Shown in pieces: positions 3,846 to 55,683 of a stretch of 64,000 nucleotides of DNA (the first letter of the stretch is position 1; every line of letters starts with the position of its first letter). The stretch is from an uncultured Gammaproteobacteria bacterium (GTDB taxonomy: Bacteria > Patescibacteriota > Microgenomatia > UBA8517), in contig CAZSXP010000002.1 of the NCBI GenBank assembly GCA_964610395.1, positions 10,192 to 74,191 of the forward strand. The letters run 5' to 3'. Made by a program: the position numbers and the translations under genes. The notes under the pieces were generated by a model. That model was not told the DNA's origin, searched no databases, and was given only the letters and a program-made list of their open reading frames with translations.

Positions 3846-3987
3846 ATTTTTCTTCAATTGTTTTACCAACTACTCTCTCACACAACCCATAAAGCTTAAT
3901 CAATATACTTTCGACCTCTTGGTCGTTTAGGTTGTCGTTTTTAAGCACTTTTCTCGCCTCTGCAACAGTGATTTTTCTTTGTACCAT
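3832..3987 (-). CDS. small ORF (51 aa) upstream of and overlapping the integrase start; possible HTH/RDF-like protein
   Basis: ATG...MVQRKITVAEARKVLK... read manually. Below the track length cutoff; overlaps the integrase start in another frame. Confidence 0.25.
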   Translation of the reverse strand: MVQRKITVAEARKVLKNDNLNDQEVESILIKLYGLCERVVGKTIEEKYGKS

Positions 3988-7338: not shown

Positions 7339-8691
7339 TTATTTGAGTTCTATGTACATGAGTTTTGGTCCGGTTAAAAGAATTATTTTGCCCTCTTCTT
7401 CTGAAACTACTATGTCTGTTGCATTTTTTATTTCATCGTTTAGATACTGAAGTTTAAATTCTCCACTTTTGTCTATAGCGACTACTCTTCCTTTTTCTTT
7501 TTCTAAAATATATACATTTTTTAATTTCTCATTTGTATAAATTGCGGTTGGATTTATAAATTGTTCACTTATTCCAGATAATGAAACAGTTTGTGGGTTT
7601 CCTAATGTAAACTTTGATACTTTTCCAGACGAAGAGAGAAGCCAAATTGATCCGTCAATTGAAACATCTTTAATTTTTGAAAAATCCACTTCAACTCCAG
7701 GAGCTAGCCATTCAGTTTTTTGGCCAAAAGTTTTGCCACTTCCTGACTGTCTAAATATTTGATTATTACTTTTATCAATTATGTAAATATTCCCAGCATA
7801 TACGTAAAACAGAGAATTTTCATCTATTTCATATACTCCATCAAGTTTATCTAAGAACAAAGTTCCTTCATATGAGGCTATTTTTTTTGTATCACCTATT
7901 TCTTCTTTGTTTGCTGCAATTTTTGCTCTTTTGGTTTTGATTCCTACATTTATAATATTTTTATTATCACTATCAAATATAAAAATATCTTCACCAGAAG
8001 AAACCATTTGACTTCCGTTAAAACCTGAAGTTTGTAATGTTAAATCCAAAAACTCTTTTACTTCCACTTTTACTTCTCCTACAATTTCTGCTTCTTTGTC
8101 TGATATATTTTTAGCAAGTTCATCTAGTTTTTCATTTTTAAATCCAGCTTTTTTTAATTCATCTGTTATATTTTTTGAACTTATAAATAATTCTCTTGCA
8201 CTGTTTTTGTCCACCACTCCTGTAATAGCTGATTCATAATTTGAAATGGCTTCATCTAGTTTAATTAAACTTTGTTTCTCAAAATCTCTATTATTTTTTT
8301 GTCTTACACCGAAGGTGACACTTACAATTAATAAAACTAAAAGAATTATTCCTACAGTAAGTGTTGTTTTTCTACTTTGTATGTTTGATTCATTTATTGG
8401 ATTATCTCTTACAAAAATTTCTTTTTGTTTATTTTCTCTTTCTTCTTCAATTGTCACTACTAATTTTTCTAAACCTTTTTCAATTGTATAAACATCTCCT
8501 ACTTGGGGAATTCCTGAAATTGAAGTTTTTTTATCTTGTGTTTCACAAAGTGTTACTGTTTTGTTATTTCGAAAAACAGTAGCTTTACAAAAAGGTTCTG
8601 TAGAAACAACTATTTTTTTAAAAAAGAAACGAATTGATCCCACACCTTCCAATTTTGGTTGACCTACATTTGATATTAATTTTAAGGACAT
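7339..8691 (-). CDS. hypothetical membrane-anchored protein with large extracytoplasmic domain
   Basis: Single TM (TVGIILLVLLIVSVTF) about 130 aa in, followed by about 320 aa of beta-rich sequence. The track start at 8712 overlaps the upstream gene; MSLKL at 8691 is likelier. Confidence 0.4.
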   Translation of the reverse strand: MSLKLISNVGQPKLEGVGSIRFFFKKIVVSTEPFCKATVFRNNKTVTLCETQDKKTSISGIPQVGDVYTIEKGLEKLVVTIEEERENKQKEIFVRDNPINESNIQSRKTTLTVGIILLVLLIVSVTFGVRQKNNRDFEKQSLIKLDEAISNYESAITGVVDKNSARELFISSKNITDELKKAGFKNEKLDELAKNISDKEAEIVGEVKVEVKEFLDLTLQTSGFNGSQMVSSGEDIFIFDSDNKNIINVGIKTKRAKIAANKEEIGDTKKIASYEGTLFLDKLDGVYEIDENSLFYVYAGNIYIIDKSNNQIFRQSGSGKTFGQKTEWLAPGVEVDFSKIKDVSIDGSIWLLSSSGKVSKFTLGNPQTVSLSGISEQFINPTAIYTNEKLKNVYILEKEKGRVVAIDKSGEFKLQYLNDEIKNATDIVVSEEEGKIILLTGPKLMYIELK

Positions 8692-8692
8692 T

Positions 8693-8905
8693 TTACAAAA
8701 TAATAATAGCAAAAACTAAGACTGCAATGGCAAACAGAAGATGTATGATTGATAATAATTTAAGTTGATTTTCAAAACCAACTTCTAATGTAGTTGTCAT
8801 TAATTGAACTTGACGAACAATAACAAAAGCAAAAATTATATATAAGACAAGTAGTATTAATATAAAAATTTTAATAACTGGCCAAATAGATAATGATAAA
8901 ATCAC
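8693..8905 (-). CDS. small membrane protein
   Basis: 70 aa, two hydrophobic helices. Confidence 0.3.
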   Translation of the reverse strand: MILSLSIWPVIKIFILILLVLYIIFAFVIVRQVQLMTTTLEVGFENQLKLLSIIHLLFAIAVLVFAIIIL

Positions 8906-9528
8906 CTTACTCTCCCCTCTATTGCTTCTTGTTGTTCTTCTGTTCGAAGGTCTTGTAAAACTTTTGCAACTTTGTCAGGATATGGAACTGCTAAAAAATC
9001 AAAATTGGGAACTTCGGAGGCTGTTTGGATCATTACATCACCATAATTGAAAAGTGTTCTTATTACCCCTCCCATTTTATAGGTAACATCTTGAATTTTA
9101 TCAATATTGGCGTCACTTACTTCTTTATAAATTAAATTATAAAAATCAATGTCAATTATTCTTTCGTCAGTAACTATATAAACATTAAAAAACCAAGTTA
9201 AAAAACTCTCTAATATGTAAGCTGTAGTTATTAAATACCAAATCATTATAAAGATAAATCTAAAATTAGAAGGTACTGATTCTAGAATTGACAAAGACAT
9301 CACAACAGTTGGAGTTAAAAGCATAATAAATCCTGTAAAAATCCAAGGGATGTTTGTAATAAAATGTTTTCTTAAAAAAAGAATTACTTTTTCTTCCTTT
9401 TCTCTTGTTTCAAAATTAATACCATGAGGAACCATTAAAAAAGAGGCAAGTGGATATCTTTCTTGCATCGGAAGATCTTTGTATAAAGCTTTCTTTCCTT
9501 TTTTAGAAGATACAAAAACATCTGGCAT
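8902..9528 (-). CDS. bacterial PH-domain (bPH_2/DUF304, YdbT-like) membrane protein
   Basis: Two TM helices followed by a YdbS/YdbT-like motif (IDKIQDVTYKMGGVIRTLFNYGDVMIQTA). Confidence 0.5.
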   Translation of the reverse strand: MPDVFVSSKKGKKALYKDLPMQERYPLASFLMVPHGINFETREKEEKVILFLRKHFITNIPWIFTGFIMLLTPTVVMSLSILESVPSNFRFIFIMIWYLITTAYILESFLTWFFNVYIVTDERIIDIDFYNLIYKEVSDANIDKIQDVTYKMGGVIRTLFNYGDVMIQTASEVPNFDFLAVPYPDKVAKVLQDLRTEEQQEAIEGRVR

Positions 9529-9545
9529 AGATCTATTATATCAGA

Positions 9546-11234
9546 TCAAATCTTTTCGATGTTAAATAATGACGATTTAATACCAATATATCCAGGTGCT
9601 CTTAAATTAAATGCTTTTTTAAATTCATCTCCTGTCATGTTGACACTTCCTTTATTTGTTCCAAAACTTACGGATTGTGTTGTGCCGTTATTATTATAAA
9701 TAACTGACACAGACGAGACTGAGGTAAAACCACCAATCTCTGAGAGATCATTCATTGAATACGGATTTCCACCCCAACAAGATGTATCAACAGGAGAAAT
9801 TCTACTTACATCCCCTCCTCCTGAGGTTAAAACTTTCCAAGCATTTAAAATGTCAGCCAGTTCTTCTGATTTTAACCATGGATTTGATTTGCCACAGGTT
9901 GATCCTCCTCTTGATTTATACCATGCTTTATAAAACCATGGTGATCCACCAACTTTTTCGTATGCAGTTGAGGGCCAATCTCCTGATGTATCTCTAATTC
10001 CATTCCATCCCCACTGAGAGATTGTAAAACCACCAGAAGAAGCTGCATAATAGGTTTTTGCAAGTGCACCATCTTTTTTAAGAACCCATCCACGTGTTAC
10101 ACGTACAGCTTCTGCCCATTTACCAGATTTGAGTTGAGATTTATAAACCTGACAAGATTCAGTCGTGCAGATATTTCCTGCGCCATTATTTGTATAATTT
10201 AAAGCGTAAGTACGAGCCGCGACAGCCTGGGCCTTGAGGGCCTCAAAACCCCCATTATCGCCCCAGCTTTCAGGGACTTCATAAATACCTAATAGGTAAT
10301 TTTCCTCGAACGCTACACGTCCAATCCCCGTAACTCCAATTGTCGCTGGTACTGGGTATGATTTTTCTAAAGTTGAACCTTGATAGTATGCAGATAAAAT
10401 AGCTTCAGCGTTTTGTCCTGATTTACTTCTTCCGTATGCCCCATATTGACTCATTCCAGTTCTGTGTGGTGCCCCAAAAGAAAAAGCTGCAAAAGCTGGA
10501 GAAAACCCAGGATTACAAAAATTTGATGAGTTTGGAGGACCAGAACACGGCTCTAAAGTTCCAGGAGTATCTCCAACAGAAGTTGAAAAACCACCGGCTT
10601 TCAAGGCCTGTAAATTTTGTTGTTTTGAACTAAGTGTACTTAAATACCCCTCGACTTTGCTTACTTCTCCTGCCAAAAATTTTTCATTCTCAGCTACTTT
10701 TGATTTTAAAACTGCTAACGTTGATTTTGATTTTTCCAAATTTTCTTTGTCAGTTTTTAACTTTCCTAAATCATCTGCATATTTTTCCATTTGTTTACGG
10801 TCGCTGTCTGCAGCTTTTTGCCTAAAATTAACTTCTCGAAACGCAGAAGTTGCGTCATTTGATGCTATAAACGGCATAATTGGGTCGTATAATCTTAAAA
10901 AGATATAGCTACTTTTTGTTTTTTCTTCAAAAAGTATTTTTGCATATCCTAAGTCATCTTCTCTATCTTTAATATTTATTTCGTTTTTCTTTAATTGAAT
11001 AGACAAACTATCAATTTTTTTGTTTAAAGATGTAATTTGGTTTCGTAAATTATTAAGCTCAGTTTTGTTTTTTTCTTGAGCAGGAGATAACGCATCAATT
11101 TCTCTTTGAATTCCATCTATTTGACACTGAAGGTCAGATCCGCAGTCTTGTGCCTCTGCAACTGAATTAATAATTAAAAAATAAGAAATAAGAATTATAA
11201 ACAAAACAACAAATAATTTAATAACCTTAGACAT
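9546..11234 (-). CDS. SpoIID/LytB-domain protein with N-terminal coiled-coil
   Basis: Signal-anchor, long coiled-coil, then a SpoIID-type domain (ALKAQAVAARTYAL...NICTTESCQVYKS). Confidence 0.6.
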   Translation of the reverse strand: MSKVIKLFVVLFIILISYFLIINSVAEAQDCGSDLQCQIDGIQREIDALSPAQEKNKTELNNLRNQITSLNKKIDSLSIQLKKNEINIKDREDDLGYAKILFEEKTKSSYIFLRLYDPIMPFIASNDATSAFREVNFRQKAADSDRKQMEKYADDLGKLKTDKENLEKSKSTLAVLKSKVAENEKFLAGEVSKVEGYLSTLSSKQQNLQALKAGGFSTSVGDTPGTLEPCSGPPNSSNFCNPGFSPAFAAFSFGAPHRTGMSQYGAYGRSKSGQNAEAILSAYYQGSTLEKSYPVPATIGVTGIGRVAFEENYLLGIYEVPESWGDNGGFEALKAQAVAARTYALNYTNNGAGNICTTESCQVYKSQLKSGKWAEAVRVTRGWVLKKDGALAKTYYAASSGGFTISQWGWNGIRDTSGDWPSTAYEKVGGSPWFYKAWYKSRGGSTCGKSNPWLKSEELADILNAWKVLTSGGGDVSRISPVDTSCWGGNPYSMNDLSEIGGFTSVSSVSVIYNNNGTTQSVSFGTNKGSVNMTGDEFKKAFNLRAPGYIGIKSSLFNIEKI

Positions 11235-11274
11235 CTATTTATTATAGCAGTTGATATGTGTTAAAATTTGGAAG

Positions 11275-11634
11275 ATGAAAAAAATAATTCTAAGTCTATT
11301 TCTATTTTTAGCTATATTCTCCACAAATGTGGTTAAAACTTCAGCACAACTTAGTGATTGTGGAATTGATACTGCCATTGGATGTATACCAGTTTCTGAT
11401 ACAAATGAATTTATGGGGTGGATATTGGGTTGGGCAGTTGGAGTTGGTGGTGGAATTGCATTTTTACTAATTGTTTATGCTAGTTTTATGGTAATGACAA
11501 GTCAAGGAGTTCCAGATAGATTAAAGGCGGGACAAGAATTACTAACATCAGCAATTTCAGGTTTGATTATGTTAATTTTCTCAGTCTTTATACTAAATTT
11601 TATAGGAATTGATATACTAGGTATATTTACATAA
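11275..11634 (+). CDS. pilin-like small two-TM protein, paralog 1 (VirB2/TrbC-like T4SS pilin candidate)
   Basis: Signal peptide, TM1, short loop, then TM2. Shares the family motif TM-(S/T)xG(D/A)-loop-A/K...IxxxIxG-TM...IVKLI with paralogs 2-8. Confidence 0.5.
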   Translation: MKKIILSLFLFLAIFSTNVVKTSAQLSDCGIDTAIGCIPVSDTNEFMGWILGWAVGVGGGIAFLLIVYASFMVMTSQGVPDRLKAGQELLTSAISGLIMLIFSVFILNFIGIDILGIFT

Positions 11635-11958
11635 ATGCAAGATTCACCATTTAAAGACATTGACATAGATACTGTTGGTAGTCCTGTCGTTGATATAAAC
11701 AGCGACAATTTAGATTTTGGATCAATAATTACTGGAGTTTTGCCCTACATTTTTGCTATAGCAGGTGTAGTTTTACTTTTTAATATTATCTCATCTGGAC
11801 TTAAAATGATGACGTCAGTTGGAGATCCAAAAGTAATGCAGGCAGCACAAGCAAAACTTACAACGTCAGTGATTGGAATTTTAATTTTATTTACATCATT
11901 TTGGATAGTAAAGCTTATAATGCAATTTATTGGTTTTAATGTGGTCTTATTTAATTAA
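11635..11958 (+). CDS. pilin-like small two-TM protein, paralog 2
   Basis: Conserved ...MMTSVGDPKVMQAAQAKLTTSVIGILILFTSFWIVKLIMQFIG; abuts paralog 1 (taaATG). Confidence 0.5.
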   Translation: MQDSPFKDIDIDTVGSPVVDINSDNLDFGSIITGVLPYIFAIAGVVLLFNIISSGLKMMTSVGDPKVMQAAQAKLTTSVIGILILFTSFWIVKLIMQFIGFNVVLFN

Positions 11959-11960
11959 TA

Positions 11961-12281
11961 ATGAAAAACTTAGCAATTAATATTGGTACAACTTTTTTAA
12001 ATGACACTCGTGGTGATTTATATAGAGTTGATAGTATAAGTAGATATGTTTCTGCAATCATTACAGGTGCAATTTCAATTGCAGGAATAATTTTATTATT
12101 TATTTTAATTGGTGGTGGTATTGGAATGATTTCAGGGGCTGGGAAATCAGATCCTCAAACTGTTGAAAAGGGTAAAAAAGCAGCAACTTCTGCCCTAATC
12201 GGCTTCATAGTTGTATTTTGCTCATATTGGATAGTAAAATTGATAGAGCAAATTACAGGACTATCTTTAATATCACTTTAA
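11961..12281 (+). CDS. pilin-like small two-TM protein, paralog 3
   Basis: Motif ISGAGKSDPQTVEKGKKAATSALIGFIVVFCSYWIVKLIEQITG. Confidence 0.5.
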   Translation: MKNLAINIGTTFLNDTRGDLYRVDSISRYVSAIITGAISIAGIILLFILIGGGIGMISGAGKSDPQTVEKGKKAATSALIGFIVVFCSYWIVKLIEQITGLSLISL

Positions 12282-12283
12282 CT

Positions 12284-12634
12284 ATGCAAAATTTAATAGC
12301 AGAAAATCCGTTTGGTGAAGTAACAATTCCAGCTGGTCTTTCTAGTTATGGTACGGAGCCAGGCCCTGCTTTTGGAAAATTAATCCAATTTGGGCTTAGG
12401 GCTTTAATAGTTGGTGCAGGTATCTATGCCCTATTTAATTTAGTTCTTGCAGGTTATGCTTTTATGTCTGCAGGAGATGATAGCAAAAAAGTTGCAGGTG
12501 CTTGGAGCCAAATTAGTCAGACATTAATCGGCCTTGCCTTTGCAGCTGGTGCATTTGTCTTAGCAGCCATAATAGGACAATTGATATTTAAAAACCCACT
12601 ATTTTTACTCAACCCAGTAATACCTGAACCATGA
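12284..12634 (+). CDS. pilin-like small two-TM protein, paralog 4
   Basis: Motif MSAGDDSKKVAGAW...LIGLAF..., more divergent. The ATG at 12284 (MQNLIAENPFG) is preferred over the overlapping track start. Confidence 0.45.
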   Translation: MQNLIAENPFGEVTIPAGLSSYGTEPGPAFGKLIQFGLRALIVGAGIYALFNLVLAGYAFMSAGDDSKKVAGAWSQISQTLIGLAFAAGAFVLAAIIGQLIFKNPLFLLNPVIPEP

Positions 12635-12993
12635 TGAATAAAATTGCACAAATAAAACTTTCACCCGACGGAGGATATAAAGGCTTTGGGCCCTTGGGGC
12701 TTGAACAAGGTCAAAATGGTATATCTGTTTTTGCAACATTTATTTCTTCTGCAGTTGGACTTATAACAATAATCGGTATTATCTGGGTAGTTTTTATAAT
12801 AGTAACTGGATCGGTTAGTATTATAACCTCAGGTGGAGATAAGCAAGCCCTTGAGGCTGCAAGAAAAAGGATTGCAAATGGCATAATTGGACTTGTAGTA
12901 TTAATTTCATCACTATTTATACTGTCGTTAATTGGAAAGTTAATTGGATTACCAAGCATATTAGACATTGCAACTATGATTGGATTACTATGA
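12631..12993 (+). CDS. pilin-like small two-TM protein, paralog 5
   Basis: Motif ITSGGDKQALEAARKRIANGIIGLVVLISSLFILSLIGKLIG. Confidence 0.5.
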   Translation: MMNKIAQIKLSPDGGYKGFGPLGLEQGQNGISVFATFISSAVGLITIIGIIWVVFIIVTGSVSIITSGGDKQALEAARKRIANGIIGLVVLISSLFILSLIGKLIGLPSILDIATMIGLL

Positions 12994-13367
12994 ACACTAA
13001 TTCACTATTAGCTGGGGCTGGCGTTACTGGAGATGGAAAAATCTCTAATCCCGCCATCGGAAACACACTTAATCAGATGTTGCTTAATTTACCTGAGTTT
13101 TATTTTGCTGATTTAATCAGTAGAACTATTGGTCTTTTATTTGTTTTTGGAGCACTTGCTTTTTTCTTTATGTTTCTTTGGGGGGCAATTACTTGGATAT
13201 TATCTGGTGGGGATAAAGCTCATGTTGAAAACGCTAGAGGTAGAATTACAAACGCTTTAATTGGTTTTGTATTAATGATTGCAACATTTGCAATAGTAAA
13301 ACTTATAGAAGCCTTTTTTGGAATTGATATTTTGTCTATTGACATAGGGCCTTTAGTCATTCAATAA
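12990..13367 (+). CDS. pilin-like small two-TM protein, paralog 6
   Basis: Motif LSGGDKAHVENARGRITNALIGFVLMIATFAIVKLIEAFFGIDIL. Confidence 0.5.
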   Translation: MNTNSLLAGAGVTGDGKISNPAIGNTLNQMLLNLPEFYFADLISRTIGLLFVFGALAFFFMFLWGAITWILSGGDKAHVENARGRITNALIGFVLMIATFAIVKLIEAFFGIDILSIDIGPLVIQ

Positions 13368-13380
13368 TACATATATAAAC

Positions 13381-13737
13381 ATGAATTTACTTGCAAGCGC
13401 AAATTATATAGCTCAAACAACAATTGATATTGGCAATAAAACAAAGTTGGGTGGTTTTGGTAATGCAACAGATTTAAGAATTGAGAATATGGTTTCAGGT
13501 TTTATTGGATTGATTTTAGTAATTGCAGGTTTAGCTTTCTTCTTTATTTTAGTTATTGGTGGAATTAAGTGGATTGTCTCAGGAGGAGACAAAGCTCACA
13601 CAGAAGGTGCTAGAAATCAAATTACAGCGGCTCTTGTCGGTTTAGTTATAGTTTTCTCTGCTTGGGCAATAGTTGCATTAATCAAATCATTCTTTGGAAT
13701 AGATCTTTTAAAGCTAACTATTCCATCTGGACAATAA
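13381..13737 (+). CDS. pilin-like small two-TM protein, paralog 7
   Basis: Motif VSGGDKAHTEGARNQITAALVGLVIVFSAWAIVALIKSFFGIDLL; closest to paralog 6. Confidence 0.5.
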   Translation: MNLLASANYIAQTTIDIGNKTKLGGFGNATDLRIENMVSGFIGLILVIAGLAFFFILVIGGIKWIVSGGDKAHTEGARNQITAALVGLVIVFSAWAIVALIKSFFGIDLLKLTIPSGQ

Positions 13738-13786
13738 ATAATCTTCTCTTGCTCAATTTTATTCTTTAGTCTAAACTTACTTTTAT

Positions 13787-14065
13787 ATGGCAAGTCCTGC
13801 ACCGTTATCAGCATTAGAAGACGTTTTTGGAAGTGTAGTTACTTCCCTTCTTGCGTTAGGTGGAATAGTTTTATTTTTAATGCTTCTGTCGGGTGGGTTT
13901 AAATATTTAACGTCTGGAGGTGACCCAAAGGCAGTAGAAGGGGCAAAAAACACATTAACTTATGCAATAGGTGGTTTAGTTCTTTTGGCCTTCTCATATT
14001 TGATTTTAGTCATTATCGGAACATTTACAGGAGCCGATGTCACTAATTTTGTGATTACTAAATGA
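13787..14065 (+). CDS. pilin-like small two-TM protein, paralog 8
   Basis: Motif LTSGGDPKAVEGAKNTLTYAIGGLVLLAFSYLILVIIGTFTG. Confidence 0.5.
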   Translation: MASPAPLSALEDVFGSVVTSLLALGGIVLFLMLLSGGFKYLTSGGDPKAVEGAKNTLTYAIGGLVLLAFSYLILVIIGTFTGADVTNFVITK

Positions 14066-16602
14066 AAACACTGCCTAAATTCTTTCTACCACGTAGTGGC
14101 AAGCTTTGCTTATTTTTATTCGTCGCAGTTTCACTCTTCACTATTCACTATTCACTATTCACTCAATCAGCAATAGCCGACATCGAGGCTTTTCCACAAA
14201 TTGGGTATCCATGCGACGGTCCTGGTCTTGATCCAGAATTTCATTCACTTCGTCCATATCAAGCTGCTGTCTGTGGTGATGCAAACAAGGCATTGTATTG
14301 TAGCAATGAATTAAAATTTATTGAATCATTTGATTTAACTCGTGAATGCGATATAAATGGTCATACTAGTGATTTTGATTGTAATCCTAATTTTAATGTT
14401 GATGAACATAATTTATATGTTGAACTAACAGATTCAATGTTTCCTATCATGGGAAATACAGAAGATACTTTTGATGATGCACAAAAAGTAAATGAATATG
14501 CAAGTTGGTATTTATCAGGTGTTAATAATCGAGCAGAATATGGAGAAAATACAGATGAACGAGTTGTTAATTTCTCAGGCCCAATCCAAAAACTTTTACC
14601 ATCAATGATTCAAGATGCTCAAAGAATTTCCACAATTGCCTCTGCTTCAGCATTAACAACCTATATAGATGAAGACACTCAACAAGAGGTTGAAAATGAA
14701 CCATTAAATCATAATCAAATAGTTGTTTGTGCAAAAGAAGAAGGTCTTGGATGGCTTGGAGATTTATTAGGTATTGGAGTGACAAATCCAAAACCTTGTT
14801 ATAGTAATGACAAATATAGACTTAAAGAATGGAATGATGATTTATCTATTTTTAATGGAATATTAAACAGAATTGGAACTGATATATGGAATAAAAGGAC
14901 TCCTCCACTTCCATGGGCAGATAAAAATGGAGACCCATTTGAAAGCCAACAGGCATATCAAAAAGCATATAACGAATGGCGAGGTGAATCTTGTGCAAAA
15001 ATTCCTTTTATTGACCTTCTGTTATGTATAGATAATCCATTTGTCCCAAACAAGTGGGCGGACTTATATCAATATATTCCCCTATCAAATACAACAGATA
15101 AAAAAGGTGCGGAGAGAATTTTAGATGTTATGTTTAAACCATCAAATGGAACAGAAATTGCAAATGAAAAATATGATGAGGCAAATAAAAAAAGTGCTCC
15201 ACTTTATTTTGCACATACGGAGGAAGTCAAAGAATCATCAAAATTATTAAATACAACATACCTTCCAAAAGATTACGAGAGTGAACCTTTACCTGAAACA
15301 ACAGAAAAAAATGTATGTAGTGCAGTTAATGTCAGAACAAACAAGGGCGATAATTTATTTCCGGGTGATAGGGCAGGGACAAAAGATGAAATTGTAATCC
15401 CTGGTGTTACGTATGACATAACCCAGGTTTTGTGTAAAGTTACTAAAACAACAGTTCCAATAATAGATCACGTAACTAAAAAGATAATAGGATACAAAGA
15501 TGTTTATACACACCATTGTAATGCAGAAGTTATACTGGTTGTCCCAACAGATATTAAAGTTCCAAATGCTGATGAAATTTATTCAACGACAGTTGCAGAT
15601 TCTGGTAGTACTTTTAGAAAAATATTTCCGAAAGTAGAGGACGGCGCACCAGTAACTTGTATTGCTGATATTCCAGCAGTTACTGGAGTTACTTATAATG
15701 CTGAGAGGAGCGAAACTCCAAACAAAGGGACTTTGGAATTTAAAGTTAAAAGTTATCCTGAAGATGGAGCAGGTAATAACCCAGAATTAACTTTCCCACA
15801 TATTGGTTCAGTTTATGAATATTTCTTAAAAGGAATTCAAACTGCCCTTAGGCCTAAAGGCTACGGCGAACCAATTGCTGATGGAACACTTTGTAAGCCA
15901 TCCTTGGCCTGTGGTGAATTGCCCGAACTTCCAAAAGCATCAGGGTCATGCAATTTGGGTGGAATAAGCTCAAGGGTTGGAGATATCCCCCAATCATTAA
16001 AAGACATCGTTTCAGCAGCAGCAGAAACATACAAAGTCCCACCAAATTTAATTTTGGGTATTATGTATGGAGAGGGACTTTTTAATCCGGGTAGGTTCGA
16101 TTGGACAGATGAAAATGTAAAAAATTGGGCAACTTGCACTCCAGTTCCAGGTTGTCAAACAAGTGGAGATGATCATTTTATGGGTTTCAATGGAAATACT
16201 TGGCAAAATGTTGCCAAAAAAATTAAACCTGATCTACAAAAACTCGATCCTGATCGCGGAGAACCAAATGTTTGTAATTTACTCGATGCTGTTTATGGTT
16301 TGGCGTGGAATCTTTATGACAGTGCCGACGGGGGAATGGCTTTTCAATGTTTCGGGAAAGATTTACAAGCTTCTATTCCATCTTCTTGTACATGGAATGA
16401 TAATCAATATATATCCGCAATAAAAATTGCTGAAAATGGTTATGAAAATGGGTGTTTTACTCTCAAAAATAGTTGTGCTACTGGTGGCGGTTATGCTGCA
16501 CTTTGTCCAGGTGGTGGAGATACTTGTGAGACAATAACTAATAGAGATCCATCTGCCCCATCACACATGGGTTGTGTTTTTGACGTTGCTAAAGGTAAGT
16601 AA
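14062..16602 (+). CDS. large Cys-rich secreted protein with C-terminal lytic-transglycosylase-like (SLT-like) region; VirB1-like candidate
   Basis: N-terminal signal peptide, more than 30 Cys, and C-terminal PPNLILGIMYGEGLFNP resembling the SLT motif (..ES.FNP). Co-operonic with the pilin array. Confidence 0.35.
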   Translation: MKTLPKFFLPRSGKLCLFLFVAVSLFTIHYSLFTQSAIADIEAFPQIGYPCDGPGLDPEFHSLRPYQAAVCGDANKALYCSNELKFIESFDLTRECDINGHTSDFDCNPNFNVDEHNLYVELTDSMFPIMGNTEDTFDDAQKVNEYASWYLSGVNNRAEYGENTDERVVNFSGPIQKLLPSMIQDAQRISTIASASALTTYIDEDTQQEVENEPLNHNQIVVCAKEEGLGWLGDLLGIGVTNPKPCYSNDKYRLKEWNDDLSIFNGILNRIGTDIWNKRTPPLPWADKNGDPFESQQAYQKAYNEWRGESCAKIPFIDLLLCIDNPFVPNKWADLYQYIPLSNTTDKKGAERILDVMFKPSNGTEIANEKYDEANKKSAPLYFAHTEEVKESSKLLNTTYLPKDYESEPLPETTEKNVCSAVNVRTNKGDNLFPGDRAGTKDEIVIPGVTYDITQVLCKVTKTTVPIIDHVTKKIIGYKDVYTHHCNAEVILVVPTDIKVPNADEIYSTTVADSGSTFRKIFPKVEDGAPVTCIADIPAVTGVTYNAERSETPNKGTLEFKVKSYPEDGAGNNPELTFPHIGSVYEYFLKGIQTALRPKGYGEPIADGTLCKPSLACGELPELPKASGSCNLGGISSRVGDIPQSLKDIVSAAAETYKVPPNLILGIMYGEGLFNPGRFDWTDENVKNWATCTPVPGCQTSGDDHFMGFNGNTWQNVAKKIKPDLQKLDPDRGEPNVCNLLDAVYGLAWNLYDSADGGMAFQCFGKDLQASIPSSCTWNDNQYISAIKIAENGYENGCFTLKNSCATGGGYAALCPGGGDTCETITNRDPSAPSHMGCVFDVAKGK

Positions 16603-17388
16603 TCAACTTAAAAAATATTTTCCTCCACTTTCAATAATCATCCCTTTAATCCCCATAATTGATAAGGTAGATCCAATTTCTACAACACTTGCTCCTAATT
16701 TCTGTGCAATCTCATCAATTTCCATTGGTTCTAGTTGTAAAATCTTATATATTTGTTCTTCTTGTTTGTTTTCAAAAATCATATCTAATATTTCTACTTT
16801 CTTCTTTTTTATTCTTAGTATATCTGCCGCACTTGTGGCCATTTGGGCGTCGCCTGATTTTATTAATTCATTACATCCAACAGAAACGGAAGAATTAATT
16901 GACCCAGGAACTGCCCAAACTTTTTTGCTCATTTTCTTAGCTATTTTTGCAGTGACTAAACTACCACTATTTTCTCCTGCCTCAATTACCAAAACACCCA
17001 AGCTTGCAAGCCCTGCAACTATTTTATTTCTTTGTGGAAATTTCCAGAGATGAGGTTTGGCATTGTCTTCATATTCGGAAACTACAGATCCACCTGTTTT
17101 TATAATTTCTTTATATAATTTTTCATTTTCAGCTGGGTAAATTACATCCAAACCACAACCAAAAACTGCAATTGTTTTTCCTCCATAATCAACAGTTTTT
17201 TGATGAACTTCAGTGTCCACCCCATACATAAAACCAGAAATTGTAGTTATTCCATTCATCACAAAATCACTAATAAATTTATCAACGACTTCTCTACCAT
17301 ATCTAGTCATTCTTCTAGAACCAACAATAGCTATTGAGTTTTTATTAATTGTAATAGGGTCTACTCCCCTAAAATGTAAGGTTTTCAT
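16603..17388 (-). CDS. dprA: DNA-processing protein DprA (Smf)
   Basis: Rossmann-like DprA core (IAIVGSRRMTRYG...VFGCGLDVIYPAEN...GENSGSLVTAKIA...AVPG). Confidence 0.8.
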   Translation of the reverse strand: MKTLHFRGVDPITINKNSIAIVGSRRMTRYGREVVDKFISDFVMNGITTISGFMYGVDTEVHQKTVDYGGKTIAVFGCGLDVIYPAENEKLYKEIIKTGGSVVSEYEDNAKPHLWKFPQRNKIVAGLASLGVLVIEAGENSGSLVTAKIAKKMSKKVWAVPGSINSSVSVGCNELIKSGDAQMATSAADILRIKKKKVEILDMIFENKQEEQIYKILQLEPMEIDEIAQKLGASVVEIGSTLSIMGIKGMIIESGGKYFLS

Positions 17389-17734
17389 AGTGTGTGATTC
17401 TGTCTGTTTCTTCTACAATACATACTGCATCTATTTGGTATCTGTCGAAACTTTTAGCAATGTCAGGATTTGTTAATAAATACATTTCTGCAGTTCTTCG
17501 AACTTGCATGAGTTTATTTTTTCCTATCATTTCTTCAGGAGTTCCATAATCTTCTGTACTTTTTAGTTTCACTTCTACAAAAACGAGTATCTCGTTTTTG
17601 GAAACAATTATGTCTAGTTCACCCCATTTAGTTGAATTATTTTTATCTAAAATCTTATATCCTCTATCTTCTAGCCATTTAGCCGCCATATCTTCCCCCT
17701 CTTTTCCTTTAAGTTTGTTAAATTGCTTAATCAT
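17369..17734 (-). CDS. yraN: YraN-family (UPF0102) endonuclease-like protein
   Basis: GEDMAAKWLEDRGYKILDKN...ELDIIV...VFVEVK pattern. Confidence 0.65.
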   Translation of the reverse strand: MIKQFNKLKGKEGEDMAAKWLEDRGYKILDKNNSTKWGELDIIVSKNEILVFVEVKLKSTEDYGTPEEMIGKNKLMQVRRTAEMYLLTNPDIAKSFDRYQIDAVCIVEETDRITHYENLTF

Positions 17735-19265
17735 TTGTTCTCACTCTATATTGAAGTGCTTCTGCTACATGATTTGGATGTATTTTTTTCGAATCGGCAA
17801 GATCCGCAATTGTTTGACTGACTTTTATAAGTCTAAAATAAGTTCTGGCTGATAAATTGTAAGTATTAACTGCCTGCTTAAGCAGCAGTAAAGCATCTGG
17901 CGTTATATCTACAAATTTTTTAATATGTTTATTTTTCATATTTGAATTTGTATAAATATTTAAACCCTTAAATCTTTTATTTTGAATTTCTCTTGCCTTT
18001 ATTACCTGTTCTCGTATCTGTTTTGAGTTGTTAACTCTTCTTTCTTCTTTATTATTTATTAATTTGTTAATGTCGACGGCTGGTACATTTATGTGTAAAT
18101 CAATTCTATCCATCAGTGGACCCGACAGTTTACTTTGGTATTTCATAATCATACGAGGTGTACATTTGCATTCCTTTTTTGGGTCACCCAAGTATCCACA
18201 AGGGCAAGGATTAGCGGCAGCAATTAACATAAAACTAGCAGGAAAATTAACAGATCCTGCTATTCTTGTAATAGAAACTTCCCCATCTTCCATGGGTTGC
18301 CTTAATGCTTCAAGTGTTGACCTTGGAAATTCTGGAAATTCATCTAAAAACAAAACACCATTATGGGCAAGTGAAATTTCCCCTGGGTGTGGGTTTGTTC
18401 CTCCCCCAATTAACCCAATTCTACTAGTTGTATGGTGTGCAGTTCTAAATGGTCTTACTCTCACAAGTCCTTCACCTGCAGGGATTAAACCAGCTAGTGA
18501 AAATATTTTAGTAACTTCCAGTGCTTCTTCCTCATTAAGTGGCGGTAAAATGCCAGCTGAGGCCCTTGCAAGCATTGTTTTGCCGGCACCAGGAGATCCC
18601 ATCATAAAAATGTTATGTCCACCGGCTGCGGCAATAGTCATTGCTCTTTTTGCTGATTCTTGACCTATTATTTCATTAAAATCAAATTCGATTTGAGGTT
18701 CCTCAAATCGTCCCTCCGAAGCCTTGGCGGAGGAGGACATTTTCTTAATCTCTTTAACTCCATTTAAATGAGCAATTAATTCTAATAAAGATTTAACAGG
18801 ATAAACATTTATTCCAGATAAAACAGCAGCTTCGTTGGCCGAATCAAATGGCACAAATAAATTTTTAATTTTTAGAGCTTTTGCGGCCAGACCTAATAAA
18901 AACACACCCTTGGTGTGGCGGAGTCCTCCATCAAGTGATAGTTCACCATAAAAAAATGACTTTTCGGAAGGTAACTTCACATTTCCAAGTGAAGCTAAGA
19001 TTCCAATTGCAATTGGTAAATCATAAAGCGATCCTTCTTTTGGAATATCAGCAGGAGCAAGATTAACTACAATTTTTGAATTTGGAATATCGATATCAGA
19101 ATTAATTAAAGCAGTTTTTACTCTTTCTTTTGCCTCTTCTATTGATTTATTAGGAAGTCCTATTATAGAAAATCCAGGAAAACCTTTTTTAAAGACATTA
19201 ACCTCAACCTCTATTAAATTTGCTTCTAATCCAAAATGACTAGCAGATAGAATTTTAGTTAACAC
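17727..19265 (-). CDS. comM: YifB/ComM family Mg-chelatase-like AAA+ ATPase
   Basis: N-terminal ChlI-like domain, Walker A MMGSPGAGKTMLA, Walker B VLFLDEFPEF, C-terminal Mg-chelatase domain. Confidence 0.8.
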   Translation of the reverse strand: MLTKILSASHFGLEANLIEVEVNVFKKGFPGFSIIGLPNKSIEEAKERVKTALINSDIDIPNSKIVVNLAPADIPKEGSLYDLPIAIGILASLGNVKLPSEKSFFYGELSLDGGLRHTKGVFLLGLAAKALKIKNLFVPFDSANEAAVLSGINVYPVKSLLELIAHLNGVKEIKKMSSSAKASEGRFEEPQIEFDFNEIIGQESAKRAMTIAAAGGHNIFMMGSPGAGKTMLARASAGILPPLNEEEALEVTKIFSLAGLIPAGEGLVRVRPFRTAHHTTSRIGLIGGGTNPHPGEISLAHNGVLFLDEFPEFPRSTLEALRQPMEDGEVSITRIAGSVNFPASFMLIAAANPCPCGYLGDPKKECKCTPRMIMKYQSKLSGPLMDRIDLHINVPAVDINKLINNKEERRVNNSKQIREQVIKAREIQNKRFKGLNIYTNSNMKNKHIKKFVDITPDALLLLKQAVNTYNLSARTYFRLIKVSQTIADLADSKKIHPNHVAEALQYRVRTND

Positions 19266-20504: not shown

Positions 20505-20951
20505 ATGCCTGCCAAAGTAAACAAAGTCCATGTTAAAGATTTCGATAAGTGGATTGAGAAGAAAAAGGAAATAAACAATAAAATTACGGCTCCACCCCAA
20601 TTTAACGAAAGAGATATTTGGTGGACATCAATTGGCGTAAATGTTGGTTTTGAGGAGGATGGCAAGAATGATATATTTATACGTCCTGTTTTGGTAATTA
20701 AAAAATTTAACAGAGAAATGTTTTTAGGCGTTCCGTTAAGCACCAAGTTAAAAGATAACAAATATTACGTTCAAATCTCAGTCAAAGACGAAATTGTATC
20801 TGCAATGACATCGCAAATCAGAGTTTTTAGTAGTAAACGCATTTGGTACAAATTAGCTGTAATTGATGACGGAGATTTTTTAAAAGTTAATGAGGAGATA
20901 TCAAAATTCTTTATTTTACCCTTCCTGCCTAAGCAAGAAGGTCGTGGCTAA
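20505..20951 (+). CDS. MazF/PemK-like toxin-family protein, copy 1
   Basis: DIWWTSIGVNVGFEEDGKND..RPVLVI...GVPLSTK...SQIRVFSSKRI resembles the MazF/PemK fold. Paralog of 24678..25130. Flanked by 23-bp direct repeats. Confidence 0.5.
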   Translation: MPAKVNKVHVKDFDKWIEKKKEINNKITAPPQFNERDIWWTSIGVNVGFEEDGKNDIFIRPVLVIKKFNREMFLGVPLSTKLKDNKYYVQISVKDEIVSAMTSQIRVFSSKRIWYKLAVIDDGDFLKVNEEISKFFILPFLPKQEGRG

Positions 20952-20981
20952 CGCCAATTTGTCTTATGTTACAATAATTAT

Positions 20982-22649
20982 ATGAAGTTGTCAAACTTAA
21001 CTAAAAAAATCAGTTTAATTCTTCTCTCTTCTTTATTAATTTTTAATTCAGTAATGGCTACGCCATTAGCTGCCCTCGCCGCCGATGAAGCCCCAAGCAC
21101 TTGGTACAACCAAGGTTTTACTGATTGGTATGCAAAAGTCTACGGTGACGAATCCCCCCCATCTGAAATTTTTGGAGAAAGATACACTGCGGCACAAGTC
21201 CAATGGATAATATATAGTCTTTTTGCTTTTCCTATAAATTTCCTTGGAAGCAAAGTTCAGGGCGCAGTTTCATGTCTATACGCATTTGGTCCAGGAAGTG
21301 TTTTTGATAAAGCTGAATGTATTACTCAAACAATGGAAGCTGTCAAAGATGCGTTTGAAGTATTAAAAATAAGTACCAGTATAGCTTATATTGATAATGG
21401 TCCACAGAATCTTGGTCAAGCAATCTTTTTTAACTATCAAAACAGACCGGTCTCAGGTGTAAGATATTTAAGTGATACATTATCAAGTCTAAACATAATA
21501 AAAACCGCAAATGCTCAAGGTTTTGGATACACGACTGCAATTGATGGCTTAAAAAATTACTGGCAAGGATTTAGAGATATTGCTTATGCCCTATCGGTAC
21601 TCGTAGTAATAGTTTTTGCTTTCATGATAATGTTCAGGGTCAAACTATCGCCACAATTAGTTATCTCAGTTCAATCTGCACTGCCTAAAATTGTTGTAGC
21701 ATTAATACTTGCAACTTTCTCATATGCGATAGCTGGTTTTGTAATAGATTTATCATATGTAGTTGGAGGTTTACTTGCTTCATTAATGAGCCTTGCTGGA
21801 TTTTCAACAGCAAACGCTAATGGAAGTGCCTTTCAGGAAGCATTTAAAGTAATTATGCCAATTGAAAATACTCAAGCGTTGGGTGGTTTTTATATATTAT
21901 TATGGATGTTTGCATACACAACTGTATTCTTTTTTGCATCAGTATGGGCTTTGATCAGCACAATTTCTGGTTTATCTGTCTATGGTTTTTTAGCAGGTAT
22001 TTTAATGGTCTTGATGTCAATTTGGGTATTAATATTAATGCTTTGGTACACAATTAAAGTGCCATGGATATTAATAAAAAACTTAATTAGTTTGTTCGTG
22101 TCAATTGTTGTAGGACCATTACAAATAGTTATTGGTGCATTGATTCCTACTATTGGATTTGGAGTCTGGTTTAAAAAGATCATAGCAGAAGCACTTGTTT
22201 TTCCATTAACTGGTTTGTTTATGTTTTTAGCTATCAAGACACTTATGGCTTCTTTCTCTGCTAGCACTGGGCAACTTTTCCATACAATGGATGGCACGTT
22301 ATGGTCACCTCCTATTTTAGGATCATCAGAAGATATGGCAGGTATACTTTGGTTGGCGGTTAGTTTTATGTTTATAACAATGATTCCAAAAGCAGTAGAT
22401 ATTATGAAAATGCTTGTTATGGGTGCTAAATTCGACTTCGGCAGTGCAATCGGTGAAGCAATGGCGCCACTTAAGATGGCTGGTGGAGCATATTCCTCTA
22501 CAAAACAGCAACAATATGAGTTAACTGCTAAACAAACAGGAACCACTCCATGGGAAGCAGCTAAATTAATGGAAGCAACTGGCGATAAAAAGGAAAAGGC
22601 TAAATATTGGTTTACTCAGGCACTACAACGATTTTCAAATTCACACTAA
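20982..22649 (+). CDS. polytopic membrane protein, VirB6/TrbL-like T4SS channel candidate
   Basis: Signal peptide plus periplasmic N-domain, then at least 7 TM helices and a hydrophilic C-tail. Confidence 0.35.
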   Translation: MKLSNLTKKISLILLSSLLIFNSVMATPLAALAADEAPSTWYNQGFTDWYAKVYGDESPPSEIFGERYTAAQVQWIIYSLFAFPINFLGSKVQGAVSCLYAFGPGSVFDKAECITQTMEAVKDAFEVLKISTSIAYIDNGPQNLGQAIFFNYQNRPVSGVRYLSDTLSSLNIIKTANAQGFGYTTAIDGLKNYWQGFRDIAYALSVLVVIVFAFMIMFRVKLSPQLVISVQSALPKIVVALILATFSYAIAGFVIDLSYVVGGLLASLMSLAGFSTANANGSAFQEAFKVIMPIENTQALGGFYILLWMFAYTTVFFFASVWALISTISGLSVYGFLAGILMVLMSIWVLILMLWYTIKVPWILIKNLISLFVSIVVGPLQIVIGALIPTIGFGVWFKKIIAEALVFPLTGLFMFLAIKTLMASFSASTGQLFHTMDGTLWSPPILGSSEDMAGILWLAVSFMFITMIPKAVDIMKMLVMGAKFDFGSAIGEAMAPLKMAGGAYSSTKQQQYELTAKQTGTTPWEAAKLMEATGDKKEKAKYWFTQALQRFSNSH

Positions 22650-22670
22650 ATTTATGTTCTGGTTTGAATT

Positions 22671-24080
22671 TTAATCGTACCATTTTCTTCTGTCCCAAGG
22701 AAATAATAATTTGTCATAATCAAGATAATTGTTTCTTTTGGGTCCTAAGGCAACTAGAACAGTTGCTCTCATGCTTGGATTGTTAAATTTAGGTTCTCTA
22801 CTTTTTGAATCTATCCCTATCGAGGCATACAACATCCATCTTTTTACTGAATCGGCCTCCCTTAATTCAAATTTTGCTAATGCACCCAATGTGTTTTGAA
22901 CCCAATCCCTAATTGCGTCTACATCTCCCCATTTTATAGGAAGCTTGCCTTGTAATGTGTCAGATAATACTCCTGCCTTACCAATCTTTAATGCGTAATC
23001 AATCCACATTGAATCTGAAACATTATTCCATGGAATTTCATTCCCTGCCCTAAGATAGTCTATTAATTTTATCTTTTCACCTCCTTCGTTGGCAGTTACT
23101 TCTTCCCAAACAGATTTAACCAAATCTCTTGGATAACATTCAGGAACTATTATATCTTTGCCACCATTACTAACTCTCCAGTAATCTTTTGGGTTTTTGT
23201 TTTCATCAGCCATAAAATGAACATTTTCCACTGAAAGTTTTTTCCCATTGTTAGACTCGACCGCCATGTTATATGCCCATTCTCCAAATTTTCCATATAA
23301 TAATACCTCTGACCCCTCTTTACTAAAAGTTCCAAGTAAAACATCCATAGGGTTCATTGCAAATTTAATAGGAATATTTACAAGATCATTCATACATTCA
23401 GAAGGTCGAATTCTACCCATGTCGTTGTATTTGCTATCTAAACTCTCAAAAGTATTACCAAGATATAATAAAGTAAAGGCTATTTGCTCTGCTTCACGAG
23501 CTTTTAAGTTAAGGGTTTCTTTGTTTTCTGTTAATTTACCTCGTTGTTTATATCCTTTTAAAACATCTTCCTTTATATCATTACGAATATTTTCTCTACA
23601 CTTTAGAACTTGTTCTCTACTTTTTGCTGTTCTTAAAGAAAAACTTTCTTCTTCGTTGGTTTTAGAATTTTTCCTAGTTCCCATAATTTCATCTGTGTCG
23701 TATATTTTTATATATCGTTCAAGTGCACTTCTAACTCCTGGAACCTCATAAAGTTTTTTAACCTCTGGTGTTTGTAATCCTCCCCAGCCTTCATATTTTG
23801 AAAGAACTTCAAGTGTTGGTGGGATTGCTCTGGTTTTTTTGAAATTAGCCGCATTTGTAAATTCGATTACAATATTGTGAATTTCTCTTTCATCCCTCGT
23901 CATTTCTACATAATATACTGGAGCGGTTTCTACATTAATTGGTTGTATTGGTTTATTAAACCATTCTTGATCCTTTAAAAAAGATTGGTACTTTTCATCT
24001 GTTGATAATCTGGGACCTTGAATAGCGTCCCTTAGTGTACTTACATCAATTATGCCTCTCTGCCCATTTGCTTCTGCCAT
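22671..24080 (-). CDS. hypothetical protein (469 aa), no recognisable family
   Basis: Soluble, no TM. Carries the shared leader GGTAAAATACAACC-ATG-GCA-GAA. Confidence 0.4.
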   Translation of the reverse strand: MAEANGQRGIIDVSTLRDAIQGPRLSTDEKYQSFLKDQEWFNKPIQPINVETAPVYYVEMTRDEREIHNIVIEFTNAANFKKTRAIPPTLEVLSKYEGWGGLQTPEVKKLYEVPGVRSALERYIKIYDTDEIMGTRKNSKTNEEESFSLRTAKSREQVLKCRENIRNDIKEDVLKGYKQRGKLTENKETLNLKAREAEQIAFTLLYLGNTFESLDSKYNDMGRIRPSECMNDLVNIPIKFAMNPMDVLLGTFSKEGSEVLLYGKFGEWAYNMAVESNNGKKLSVENVHFMADENKNPKDYWRVSNGGKDIIVPECYPRDLVKSVWEEVTANEGGEKIKLIDYLRAGNEIPWNNVSDSMWIDYALKIGKAGVLSDTLQGKLPIKWGDVDAIRDWVQNTLGALAKFELREADSVKRWMLYASIGIDSKSREPKFNNPSMRATVLVALGPKRNNYLDYDKLLFPWDRRKWYD

Positions 24081-24125
24081 GGTTGTATTTTACCATTTTT
24101 TAAATAAAATGTTTTAAAAAATAAA

Positions 24126-24160
24126 AAGACCACTCATTTTTAACTACTTTGAGTGGTCTT
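24126..24160 (-). terminator. rho-independent terminator downstream of the Zn-ribbon gene
   Basis: 10-bp stem AGACCACTCA/TGAGTGGTCT followed on the minus strand by a T-run. Confidence 0.5.
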
Positions 24161-24178
24161 TAGACTAACAGCAACTTA

Positions 24179-24517
24179 TTACATTTTCTCAGCACATCTT
24201 TGGCAAATTCCTTTATAGATATGTTCCGCACATGTCCAATTCCGACAATTGACACATTGGTAAAGATCTTTCGGTTTAGACCAATTGTCACCATCTTCAT
24301 GGTAAGTGTCTAAACCCATTCGAAGCTCAATAGACTCCCTCATAGGTTCTCGGGCGGGTTTGTCGCAGATGTGACACTTGAACTTTCTACCAAGTTCTTG
24401 GACTTTTACCACTCTTTCTCTACGAGCGGACTCAAGAAATTCTTTTTTGCTTTTTTCCACTTCAGCCTCTCGGGCTTTTTCTTCCTCATCAATCTTTTTC
24501 TTCCAATCTTTTGTCAT
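24179..24517 (-). CDS. small K/E-rich protein with C-terminal Cys-rich zinc-ribbon
   Basis: CHIC...CVNC...CAEH...CQRC. Own SD-type RBS (AAGGAGG). Confidence 0.45.
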   Translation of the reverse strand: MTKDWKKKIDEEEKAREAEVEKSKKEFLESARRERVVKVQELGRKFKCHICDKPAREPMRESIELRMGLDTYHEDGDNWSKPKDLYQCVNCRNWTCAEHIYKGICQRCAEKM

Positions 24518-24677
24518 GGCACACCTCCTTAGTGTGTATTACATAAATTTTTACCGAGAAATGTCAAGTTGCAAGTGAATACTAACACAAAAAGGCAATT
24601 ACTTCAAGACTATAGGTATTTGGGGTTGGGGATTGACTTTTAGGGCAAAATAGATATACTAATAAGTACAAATTGCC

Positions 24678-25130: not shown

Positions 25131-25218
25131 GGTTGTATTTTACCTTAAATTAGTACAGAGAGAATGCATCACTTCGTGGGCAAAGTACCTAGTACTTAGT
25201 ATTGGTGGGATCAAAAAA

Positions 25219-25889: not shown

Positions 25890-25942
25890 AGTTGTATATT
25901 ACCTTAAATTAGTGCAGAGTACAAAGTACCTAGTACTTAGTA

Positions 25943-26269: not shown

Positions 26270-26284
26270 ATATCGTATATGCTA

Positions 26285-52616: not shown

Positions 52617-55683
<3,067 letters not shown>

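Follow-up and report, generated by a model that had tools for sequence, protein, structure and literature searches.

The DNA stretch analysed here (64,000 nucleotides (nt) of contig CAZSXP010000002.1, assembly GCA_964610395.1; hereafter the window) is chromosomal DNA of a member of the Patescibacteria with a guanine-plus-cytosine content of about 33%, and it carries on the + strand at 11275-16602 nine tightly packed open reading frames (ORFs): eight genes for small pilin-like proteins (11275-14065), followed by one gene for a large secreted protein of 846 aa (14062-16602). Judged by sequence comparison, the eight genes are an ancient, fixed and ordered set of distinct orthologs and not recent amplifications, and the large protein belongs to a family that combines a conserved body of ~570 aa with a lysozyme-like module, of which six or more sequence types are swapped at a sharp junction. 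We consider it likely that the region is the extracellular, or pilin, module of a type IV secretion system (T4SS) that a Woesebacteria-like member of the Patescibacteria encodes on its chromosome near the origin; homologs come almost all from Woesebacteria or Microgenomates assemblies.

Eight pilin genes and their positional orthologs

We gathered 82 related loci (78 from genome contigs and 4 via exact-protein look-up) and scanned their ORFs with a hidden Markov model (HMM) made from the eight window paralogs. An earlier note on this stretch, written from the letters alone, had proposed comparing copy number among relatives, and the number recurs: exactly eight pilin ORFs lie directly upstream of the large gene in 53 non-redundant loci. 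Loci with fewer than eight are mostly truncated by a contig end, and nine loci with 9-10 pilin ORFs keep the order 1 to 8, the extras being duplicates of position 1 or 7. Of the 424 pilins in these 53 loci, 411 have the same-position window paralog as their best match; at positions 1, 2, 4, 5, 7 and 8 this is so in 53 of 53, pilins 2 and 4 included; and this positional orthology persists where the large protein is only 23-30% identical to that of the window. We call the set ancient because number, order and same-position matching are kept over this whole range.

The eight genes follow one another back to back, as the earlier note had described, with a taaATG abutment at 11632-11637, ATGA overlaps at 12631, 12990 and 14062, and remaining intergenic gaps of 2, 2, 13 and 49 nt. 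The proteins measure 92-125 aa on the called starts, and the upper limit of 127 aa given earlier applies only if pilin 1 begins at an alternative TTG codon at 11251; their pairwise identity averages 26% (range 15-46%). All eight match the family PF18895 (T4SS_pilin; gathering score 26.6 bits). Five lie above the gathering score, at 28.1-42.5 bits: pilin 3 (11961-12281, 106 aa, 39.3 bits), pilin 5 (12631-12993, 120 aa, 35.6 bits), pilin 6 (12990-13367, 125 aa, 28.1 bits), pilin 7 (13381-13737, 118 aa, 33.7 bits) and pilin 8 (13787-14065, 92 aa, with the shortest N-region, 42.5 bits). Pilin 1 (11275-11634, 119 aa, 23.2 bits), pilin 2 (11635-11958, 107 aa, with an acidic N-region, 20.0 bits) and pilin 4 (12284-12634, 116 aa, the most divergent paralog, 15.9 bits) fall below the cut-off, with E = 7e-5 to 0.014. 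The array HMM recovers all eight at 104-138 bits (pilin 4 at 126 bits), which is not an independent test because the model was built from the same eight sequences, pilin 4 itself among them. Two of the eight give sub-threshold hits to NF045849, a family of 'pilin-like conjugal transfer protein' from mycoplasma integrative and conjugative elements; for pilin 3 this match (Mbov_0395 pilin-like) has E = 2.3e-5, below the cut-off. Chance does not account for the array, given that all eight match PF18895 and that over 50 other genomes have the entire arrangement.

All eight proteins contain two hydrophobic segments of ~20 residues separated by a short loop bearing K/R, preceded in genes 2-8 by polar or acidic N-regions of 13-44 aa. 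An AlphaFold2 model of pilin 8 predicts a helix-turn-helix hairpin, with helices 7-42 and 47-81 and the turn at SGGD (predicted local distance difference test score, pLDDT, 78). This two-helix hairpin with a short basic loop is as in the TrbC/VirB2 conjugative pilins, and a VirB4-type T4SS is encoded in the same window; the long cleaved N-terminal leader of TrbC/VirB2 is not found, as only pilin 1 has an N-terminal hydrophobic signal segment. The architecture of two transmembrane segments and a basic loop that the earlier note ascribed to all members thus stands, and two of its sequence motifs are narrower than proposed: SGGD(K/P) is exact only in genes 5-8, and IVKLIE occurs only in genes 2, 3 and 6. 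Its assignment to the VirB2/TrbC class is supported by PF18895 (8/8, five above threshold) and by the VirB4 in the window, and not by the TrbC family PF04956. We also considered type IV pilins and rejected them: the prepilin peptidase site G|F(M)xxxE is in none of the eight sequences, in agreement with the earlier note.

The same note's contrast between variable N-regions and conserved cores holds among orthologs, whose identity to the window proteins is 0.15-0.47 in the N-regions vs. 0.47-0.75 in the cores. Though faster-evolving, the N-regions retain paralog-specific conserved motifs. Pilin 1, the sole array member with an N-terminal signal peptide (MKKIILSLFLFLAIFSTNVVKTSA|Q), has three hydrophobic segments, a conserved IDTAIGCIP motif in its mature N-region and the most conserved core among the eight (0.75 identity to orthologs); in other genomes its orthologs carry an N-terminal extension of 200-490 aa ahead of the C-terminal pilin domain. 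The core conservation of pilin 7 is 0.71, and array-HMM scores across loci are mostly highest at its position. As pilins 7 and 1 have the most conserved cores, and a promoter-like sequence precedes gene 7, they are the likeliest candidates for the major subunit.

That promoter-like sequence (TTGACA, a spacer of 18 nt, AATAAT; 11/12 match) lies at 13339-13368, at the 3' end of pilin gene 6 and just upstream of pilin 7; it is the best such hit of the region and may be an internal promoter. The promoter scan of the region gave 19 promoter-like matches vs. 26 expected from shuffled sequence; counts are not above expectation, and we therefore draw no claim on operon boundaries from promoter or terminator scans.

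Two further observations concern the array in relatives. The position-1 orthologs of divergent Woesebacteria (L081 2632-4305, L062 2121-3587, L079 3017-4384 and others) reach 280-560 aa, and their large N-terminal domain has no family match apart from one weak BACON hit. In several loci the array is split by insertions of accessory genes with the pilin order intact (L013 7027-8092; L014 5894-6439 and 8530-9503; L019 8435-9679; L025 and L027 about 2318-3680; L041; L073 6089-7605); by eye, from their N-terminal sequences, the inserted genes include ones for P-loop/AAA-type ATPases and four-helix-bundle (23S rRNA IVP-like), HEPN-like, AbiEii-like and Fic-like proteins.

A large secreted protein with an exchangeable lysozyme-like end

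The ninth gene encodes the 846-aa secreted protein described in the earlier note, with 27 Cys rather than the more than 30 claimed there; 22 of these are at least 90% conserved among 77 homologs. Residues 1-39 (14062-14178) form a predicted signal peptide with a hydrophobic segment at 15-33 and cleavage predicted after AIA; Ala39, the predicted -1 site, is at least 90% conserved, and pLDDT is below 50 at residues 34-42. The Cys-rich N-terminal core (aa 40-612; 14179-15897) is conserved and mostly beta in the predicted structure, with a long hairpin at 444-501, and is followed by the C-terminal lysozyme-like module (aa 613-846 plus stop; 15898-16602), which resembles glycoside hydrolase family 23 (GH23) and soluble lytic transglycosylases (SLT). 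Residues 663-676 of this module form the motif LILGIMYGEGLFNP, which contains the putative catalytic Glu671 (16072-16074).

An AlphaFold2 model from the alignment of 77 sequences (pLDDT 86.7) predicts a mostly beta N-terminal body and, at ~644-843, a helical C-terminal part with the lysozyme-like alpha fold of the GH23/SLT superfamily. Glu671 is invariant in the 77 sequences and is placed just after the helix 661-670. The model supports, at the level of fold, the SLT-like C-terminus that the earlier note had proposed, with catalysis as a putative function. Tse3, a muramidase effector of type VI secretion systems, and phage lysins are among the structural matches. None of the 413 homologs of the large protein is functionally named, the few with names being called 'hypothetical protein', and comparison with the sequences in the PDB, by the single sequence and by a 77-sequence profile, gave no significant match.

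The exchangeability of this module goes beyond what the earlier note had envisaged. Many homologs align to the window protein only to about residue 610-630; with the closest relative (P0005) the identity is 86% over residues 42-612, as far as '…RPKGYGEPIADGTLCK', and there is no similarity beyond. Clustering the tails of 184 homologs gave groups of 111 (the window type), 33, 18, 9, 8 and 3 plus two singletons, all but one of the tails being 134-227 aa long. In each of the six groups a Glu is at least 95% conserved, mostly in the context (V/N)P..hh.hh..E[G/S/N/T]. One group scores above threshold for PF18896 SLT_3 (32-34 bits) and another has a weak SLT_2 hit (E = 0.002), so that SLT families are found in the other tails of orthologs and not, by Pfam, in the tail of the window protein itself. 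When homologs are ranked by similarity of the N-terminal core, tail types are interleaved and their distribution is patchy; none of the five relatives nearest to the window protein shares its tail type. We saw no variable immunity-like gene after the large gene in the window or in related loci.

Two minor features belong to this gene family. The large-protein homolog of L066 has, at about 12179-13009, a 277-aa tail that is unlike the lysozyme-like types and without a Pfam hit; its ITETG and PNEP motifs are reminiscent of the glycosidases of clan GH-A. In the window, the signal-peptide coding region of the 846-aa gene contains a heptanucleotide tandem repeat (TTCACTN, ~5 copies, 14130-14163), the top-scoring tandem repeat of the whole window, at which slippage would shift the frame because the unit is 7 nt. 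This repeat is not conserved in relatives, with only L061 having another 7-mer (3 copies near the start), and it is therefore not used in our interpretation.

A proposed structure and its alternatives

We propose that the eight proteins would insert in the membrane so that the loop lies on the inner side and both termini on the outer; that the VirB4 machine would extract and polymerise them into a pilus-like tube or a wall-spanning conduit; and that the faster-evolving N-regions, together with the large domains fused to pilin 1 in other genomes, would face outward. Because each pilin is an ancient position-specific ortholog, the eight may fill different structural roles, like the major-plus-minor pilin sets of type II secretion systems (T2SS) and type IV pili, rather than serve as interchangeable antigenic variants. 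The large protein would be exported by Sec and cut the glycan strands of peptidoglycan so that the apparatus can cross the wall, with its catalytic module exchanged between lineages at a fixed junction. This exchange between lineages suggests that the wall cut includes that of the host, which is the least secure step of the scheme. The scheme in full, a heteromeric T4SS pilus or feeding tube of eight ordered pilins with the large protein as a wall-breaching head whose exchangeable module is matched to host peptidoglycan, is tentative, and we rate it as possible and well short of probable. If it is true, module swaps would track host shifts in Woesebacteria, an uncultured lineage, and the large protein would give this lineage its first candidate determinant of host specificity as well as its first T4SS-associated enzyme directed at the host.

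Several observations weigh against assigning the region to a T4SS with pilins and a wall-opening enzyme. TrbC/VirB2 PF04956 has no match at E ≤ 1 for any of the eight proteins; a profile of the eight found no pilin chain among the PDB sequences; a signal peptide, present in classical VirB2, TraA and TrbC, is missing from seven of the eight; and there is no direct evidence of filament formation for any PF18895 protein. The T4SS core of the window lies 11 kb from the array, with competence and toxin-antitoxin genes between, and the scanned ORFs of the window showed neither a coupling protein nor a relaxase. For the large protein, Pfam, NCBIfam and PHROGs gave no match; a Foldseek search of its model against the PDB returned none; and its catalytic-type motif reads E-G, not the usual E-S. 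The sole near-hit of its profile among PDB sequences is MltC, at E = 0.82 and not significant alone: 'LILGvMYGEGlFN' is paired with 'LILAIMQTESSFNP', which places Glu671 opposite the E of MltC 'IMQTESSFNP', a residue that we take to be the catalytic Glu217.

Some of these points would be accommodated if the eight proteins were subunits of a membrane-resident channel or wall-spanning stub, a defined hetero-oligomer that never forms an extended pilus. A fixed number and order is no less expected of a stoichiometric complex than of a filament; the missing signal peptides and the absence of a sequence link to solved pilins agree with it; and Gram-positive-type T4SSs are normally without pili (PMC12102498). 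Yet PF18895 is annotated as a pilin family, the array-HMM and NCBIfam hits are to pilin-like conjugal proteins, and the large extracellular N-terminal domains on pilin 1 orthologs fit surface display, and we regard such a complex as conceivable without being the favoured outcome. The earlier note had suggested a phase- or antigen-variable filament, and the array might accordingly be a reservoir for antigenic, phase or host-range variation, with interchangeable versions of one pilin and different ones used per host. N-regions that diverge faster than cores, paralogs only 26% identical and a literature analogy with the VirB2 paralogs of Bartonella and Anaplasma (PMC12102498) speak for this. The following speaks against it: orthology is positional (411/424), copy number is 8 in 53 loci and order is kept even in 9-10-gene arrays; N-motifs are conserved paralog by paralog; the genes are translationally coupled in a single operon; and the pilin genes contain no long or recombinogenic DNA repeats, invertible segments, inverted repeats or simple repeats. 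Positional orthology, conserved N-motifs and repeat-free genes therefore argue against phase or antigen variation, which we consider very unlikely, and favour a multi-component structure with outward N-regions.

Small proteins with two transmembrane segments beside a lysozyme-like enzyme are also the classic holin-endolysin layout, and with Tse3 and phage lysins among the structural matches one could envisage a lysis or bacteriocin-type cassette, possibly prophage-derived, of holin-like or immunity proteins and a secreted muramidase. The earlier note had itself named holins or bacteriocin immunity proteins among the findings that would overturn its view; none of the nine proteins matched PHROGs, holins and endolysins included, at E ≤ 0.1, whereas all eight small ones match T4SS_pilin. 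Moreover, the context is chromosomal, and over 50 genomes keep the synteny with housekeeping and T4SS genes; the enzyme carries a Sec signal peptide together with a conserved extra domain of 570 aa; and no variable immunity gene follows it. We disfavour such a cassette as highly improbable. For the enzyme alone, the E-G in place of the canonical E-S, SLT motifs II and III that are not recognisable and the lack of a Pfam SLT hit would fit a catalytically dead module that only binds peptidoglycan or serves as a structural anchor; but Glu671 is invariant in 77 sequences, each of the six unrelated-looking tail types retains a Glu with at least 95% conservation, and among these types is a bona fide SLT_3 domain, so that a dead module seems unlikely.

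The array is a kind of feature that is already known. VirB2-like pilin arrays in Patescibacteria were published by Wang et al. 2023 (PMC10633639) and Quinonero-Coronel et al. 2025 (PMC12102498); the survey in the latter counts 441 arrays, each with 2-11 genes whose products share ~25% identity, finds them abundant in Microgenomatia, and places PrgI/TrsD/VirB4 near dnaN/dnaA as the arrangement of the Patescibacteria T4SS. Southlakia epibionticum ML1 has a six-pilin array (PMC10633639), which is essential (PMC10633639; review PMC12857230); T4SS and pilin array are essential to the epibiotic life of the one genetically tractable patescibacterium, and their role has been called completely unknown (PMC11665869). 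The published reading of the arrays, pilin variation for host range, is speculative (PMC12102498). The window shares with these arrays PF18895, tandem genes, ~25% paralog identity, a FATA-type VirB4/PrgI/TrsD core near dnaA, the absence of an observed relaxase or coupling protein and the occurrence in Microgenomatia; it differs in that eight positional orthologs are fixed and ordered across the lineage, that 4-11 kb separate array and virB4, and that the array is always followed by the large protein with its lysozyme-like end. In the searched literature, no paper brings together Woesebacteria, pilin and type IV secretion, and neither SpoIID nor a Cys-rich protein is mentioned in PMC12102498. 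Within that literature, three findings appear to be new: the strict positional orthology of all eight members, the polymorphic lysozyme-like ends of the protein linked to the array, and the wider conserved synteny.

The proposed role of the large protein in opening peptidoglycan is shared with PrgK (pCF10), TraG (pIP501) and VirB1 (Agrobacterium), which likewise combine a T4SS-linked SLT/lysozyme-type domain with an N-terminal signal or anchor. PrgK, at about 870 aa, is similar in size. The analogy with these three is one of function: sequence homology of the large protein is not detectable (no Pfam SLT, CHAP or LytM hit), its module is exchangeable, with six or more sequence types known, and its gene sits with the pilins, not beside virB4. 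PrgK, TraG and VirB1 open peptidoglycan in other T4SSs, as relayed in PMC12102498, and most VirB2-containing genomes of that survey lack a VirB1 homolog; the array-linked lysozyme-like protein is a candidate for this missing VirB1-type function. With major-plus-minor (pseudo)pilin sets (GspG plus GspH-K) the array shares ancient non-interchangeable paralogs, a conserved order and one operon; the analogy is functional, as fold and assembly machinery are unrelated to those of type IV pili and T2SS, the prepilin peptidase motif is absent and the assembly ATPase would be VirB4. The sharp junction after a conserved motif (…RPKGYGEPIADGTLCK) and the patchy tail types among close relatives resemble polymorphic effectors; unlike those and Tse3, the tails examined appear to be one enzyme class (lysozyme-like), no immunity gene is adjacent and delivery by a T4SS is unproven. 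With a fixed eight-subunit set, 'variable pilins for different hosts' gives way to a 'multi-component structure' as the working model, and module swapping provides a concrete, testable lead to host interaction.

Neighbouring genes and the T4SS core

The conserved synteny comprises the SpoIID operon, the eight pilins, the large protein, a 555-aa membrane protein and PrgI-VirB4. Upstream, a 40-bp gap (11235-11274), correctly placed by the earlier note, separates the array from a divergent SpoIID/bPH_2 operon on the - strand. Its first gene (9546-11234) encodes a SpoIID-domain protein (PF08486, 56.6 bits) that has a coiled coil besides its signal anchor and is syntenic in 55 of 74 loci; the rest of the operon (7339-9528; Pfam hits; syntenic in 47-54 of 74 loci) encodes a bPH_2 membrane protein (8902-9528), a DUF5657 protein (8693-8905) and a 457-aa single-pass protein (7339-8712).

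Downstream on the + strand, the 555-aa polytopic protein (20982-22649), with a signal peptide and ~7 transmembrane segments, is present in 65 of 74 loci. In relatives its gene usually begins 20-60 bp after the large gene; in the window an inserted dprA-yraN-comM block displaces it to 20982-22649. It has no Pfam match, alone or with 31 orthologs, and no match among PDB sequences; by topology and position it is a candidate VirB6-like channel subunit, of interest as VirB6 is reported to be scarce in Microgenomatia. The T4SS core (27460-30976, +; PF12666, PF19044) is found in ~50 loci, 4-8 kb downstream of the large gene, and consists of a PrgI/VirB3-like gene (27460-28494), a TrsD-like/VirB4 N-terminal ORF (28491-29195; NF041427 TrsD) and the VirB4 ATPase (29192-30976; NF045971, VirB4-like CD1110 family, 371.5 bits). 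The two VirB4 ORFs overlap by 4 nt, and because the same split occurs in related genomes it is not a sequencing frameshift. VirB4 is followed by the gene for an 878-aa membrane protein and then by dnaN and dnaA. The 878-aa protein (30979-33615), without a family match, has an N-terminal coiled-coil-like region, a glycine-rich transmembrane bundle and a Cys-rich C-terminal part, and contains HELTHH, a metallopeptidase-type HExxH motif.

Other genes of the window are noted for completeness. Competence-type genes surround the locus: the block of dprA, yraN (UPF0102) and comM is at 16603-19265 (-), an insertion shared by 5-6 related loci, and at 927-1526 (-) there is a ComFC-like gene (double zinc ribbon plus PRTase). 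A toxin-antitoxin/defence cluster at 20505-27163, between the pilin module and the T4SS core, encodes two PemK/MazF-like toxins, HTH_3, NTase_sub_bind (HEPN-like) and an AbiEii nucleotidyltransferase. Possible traces of mobile elements are a large serine recombinase (Resolvase plus Zn_ribbon_recom) at 2268-3869 (-) and an ORF with a helix-turn-helix and a LAGLIDADG endonuclease at 54514-55683 (-), which abuts the 3' end of a chaperonin gene.

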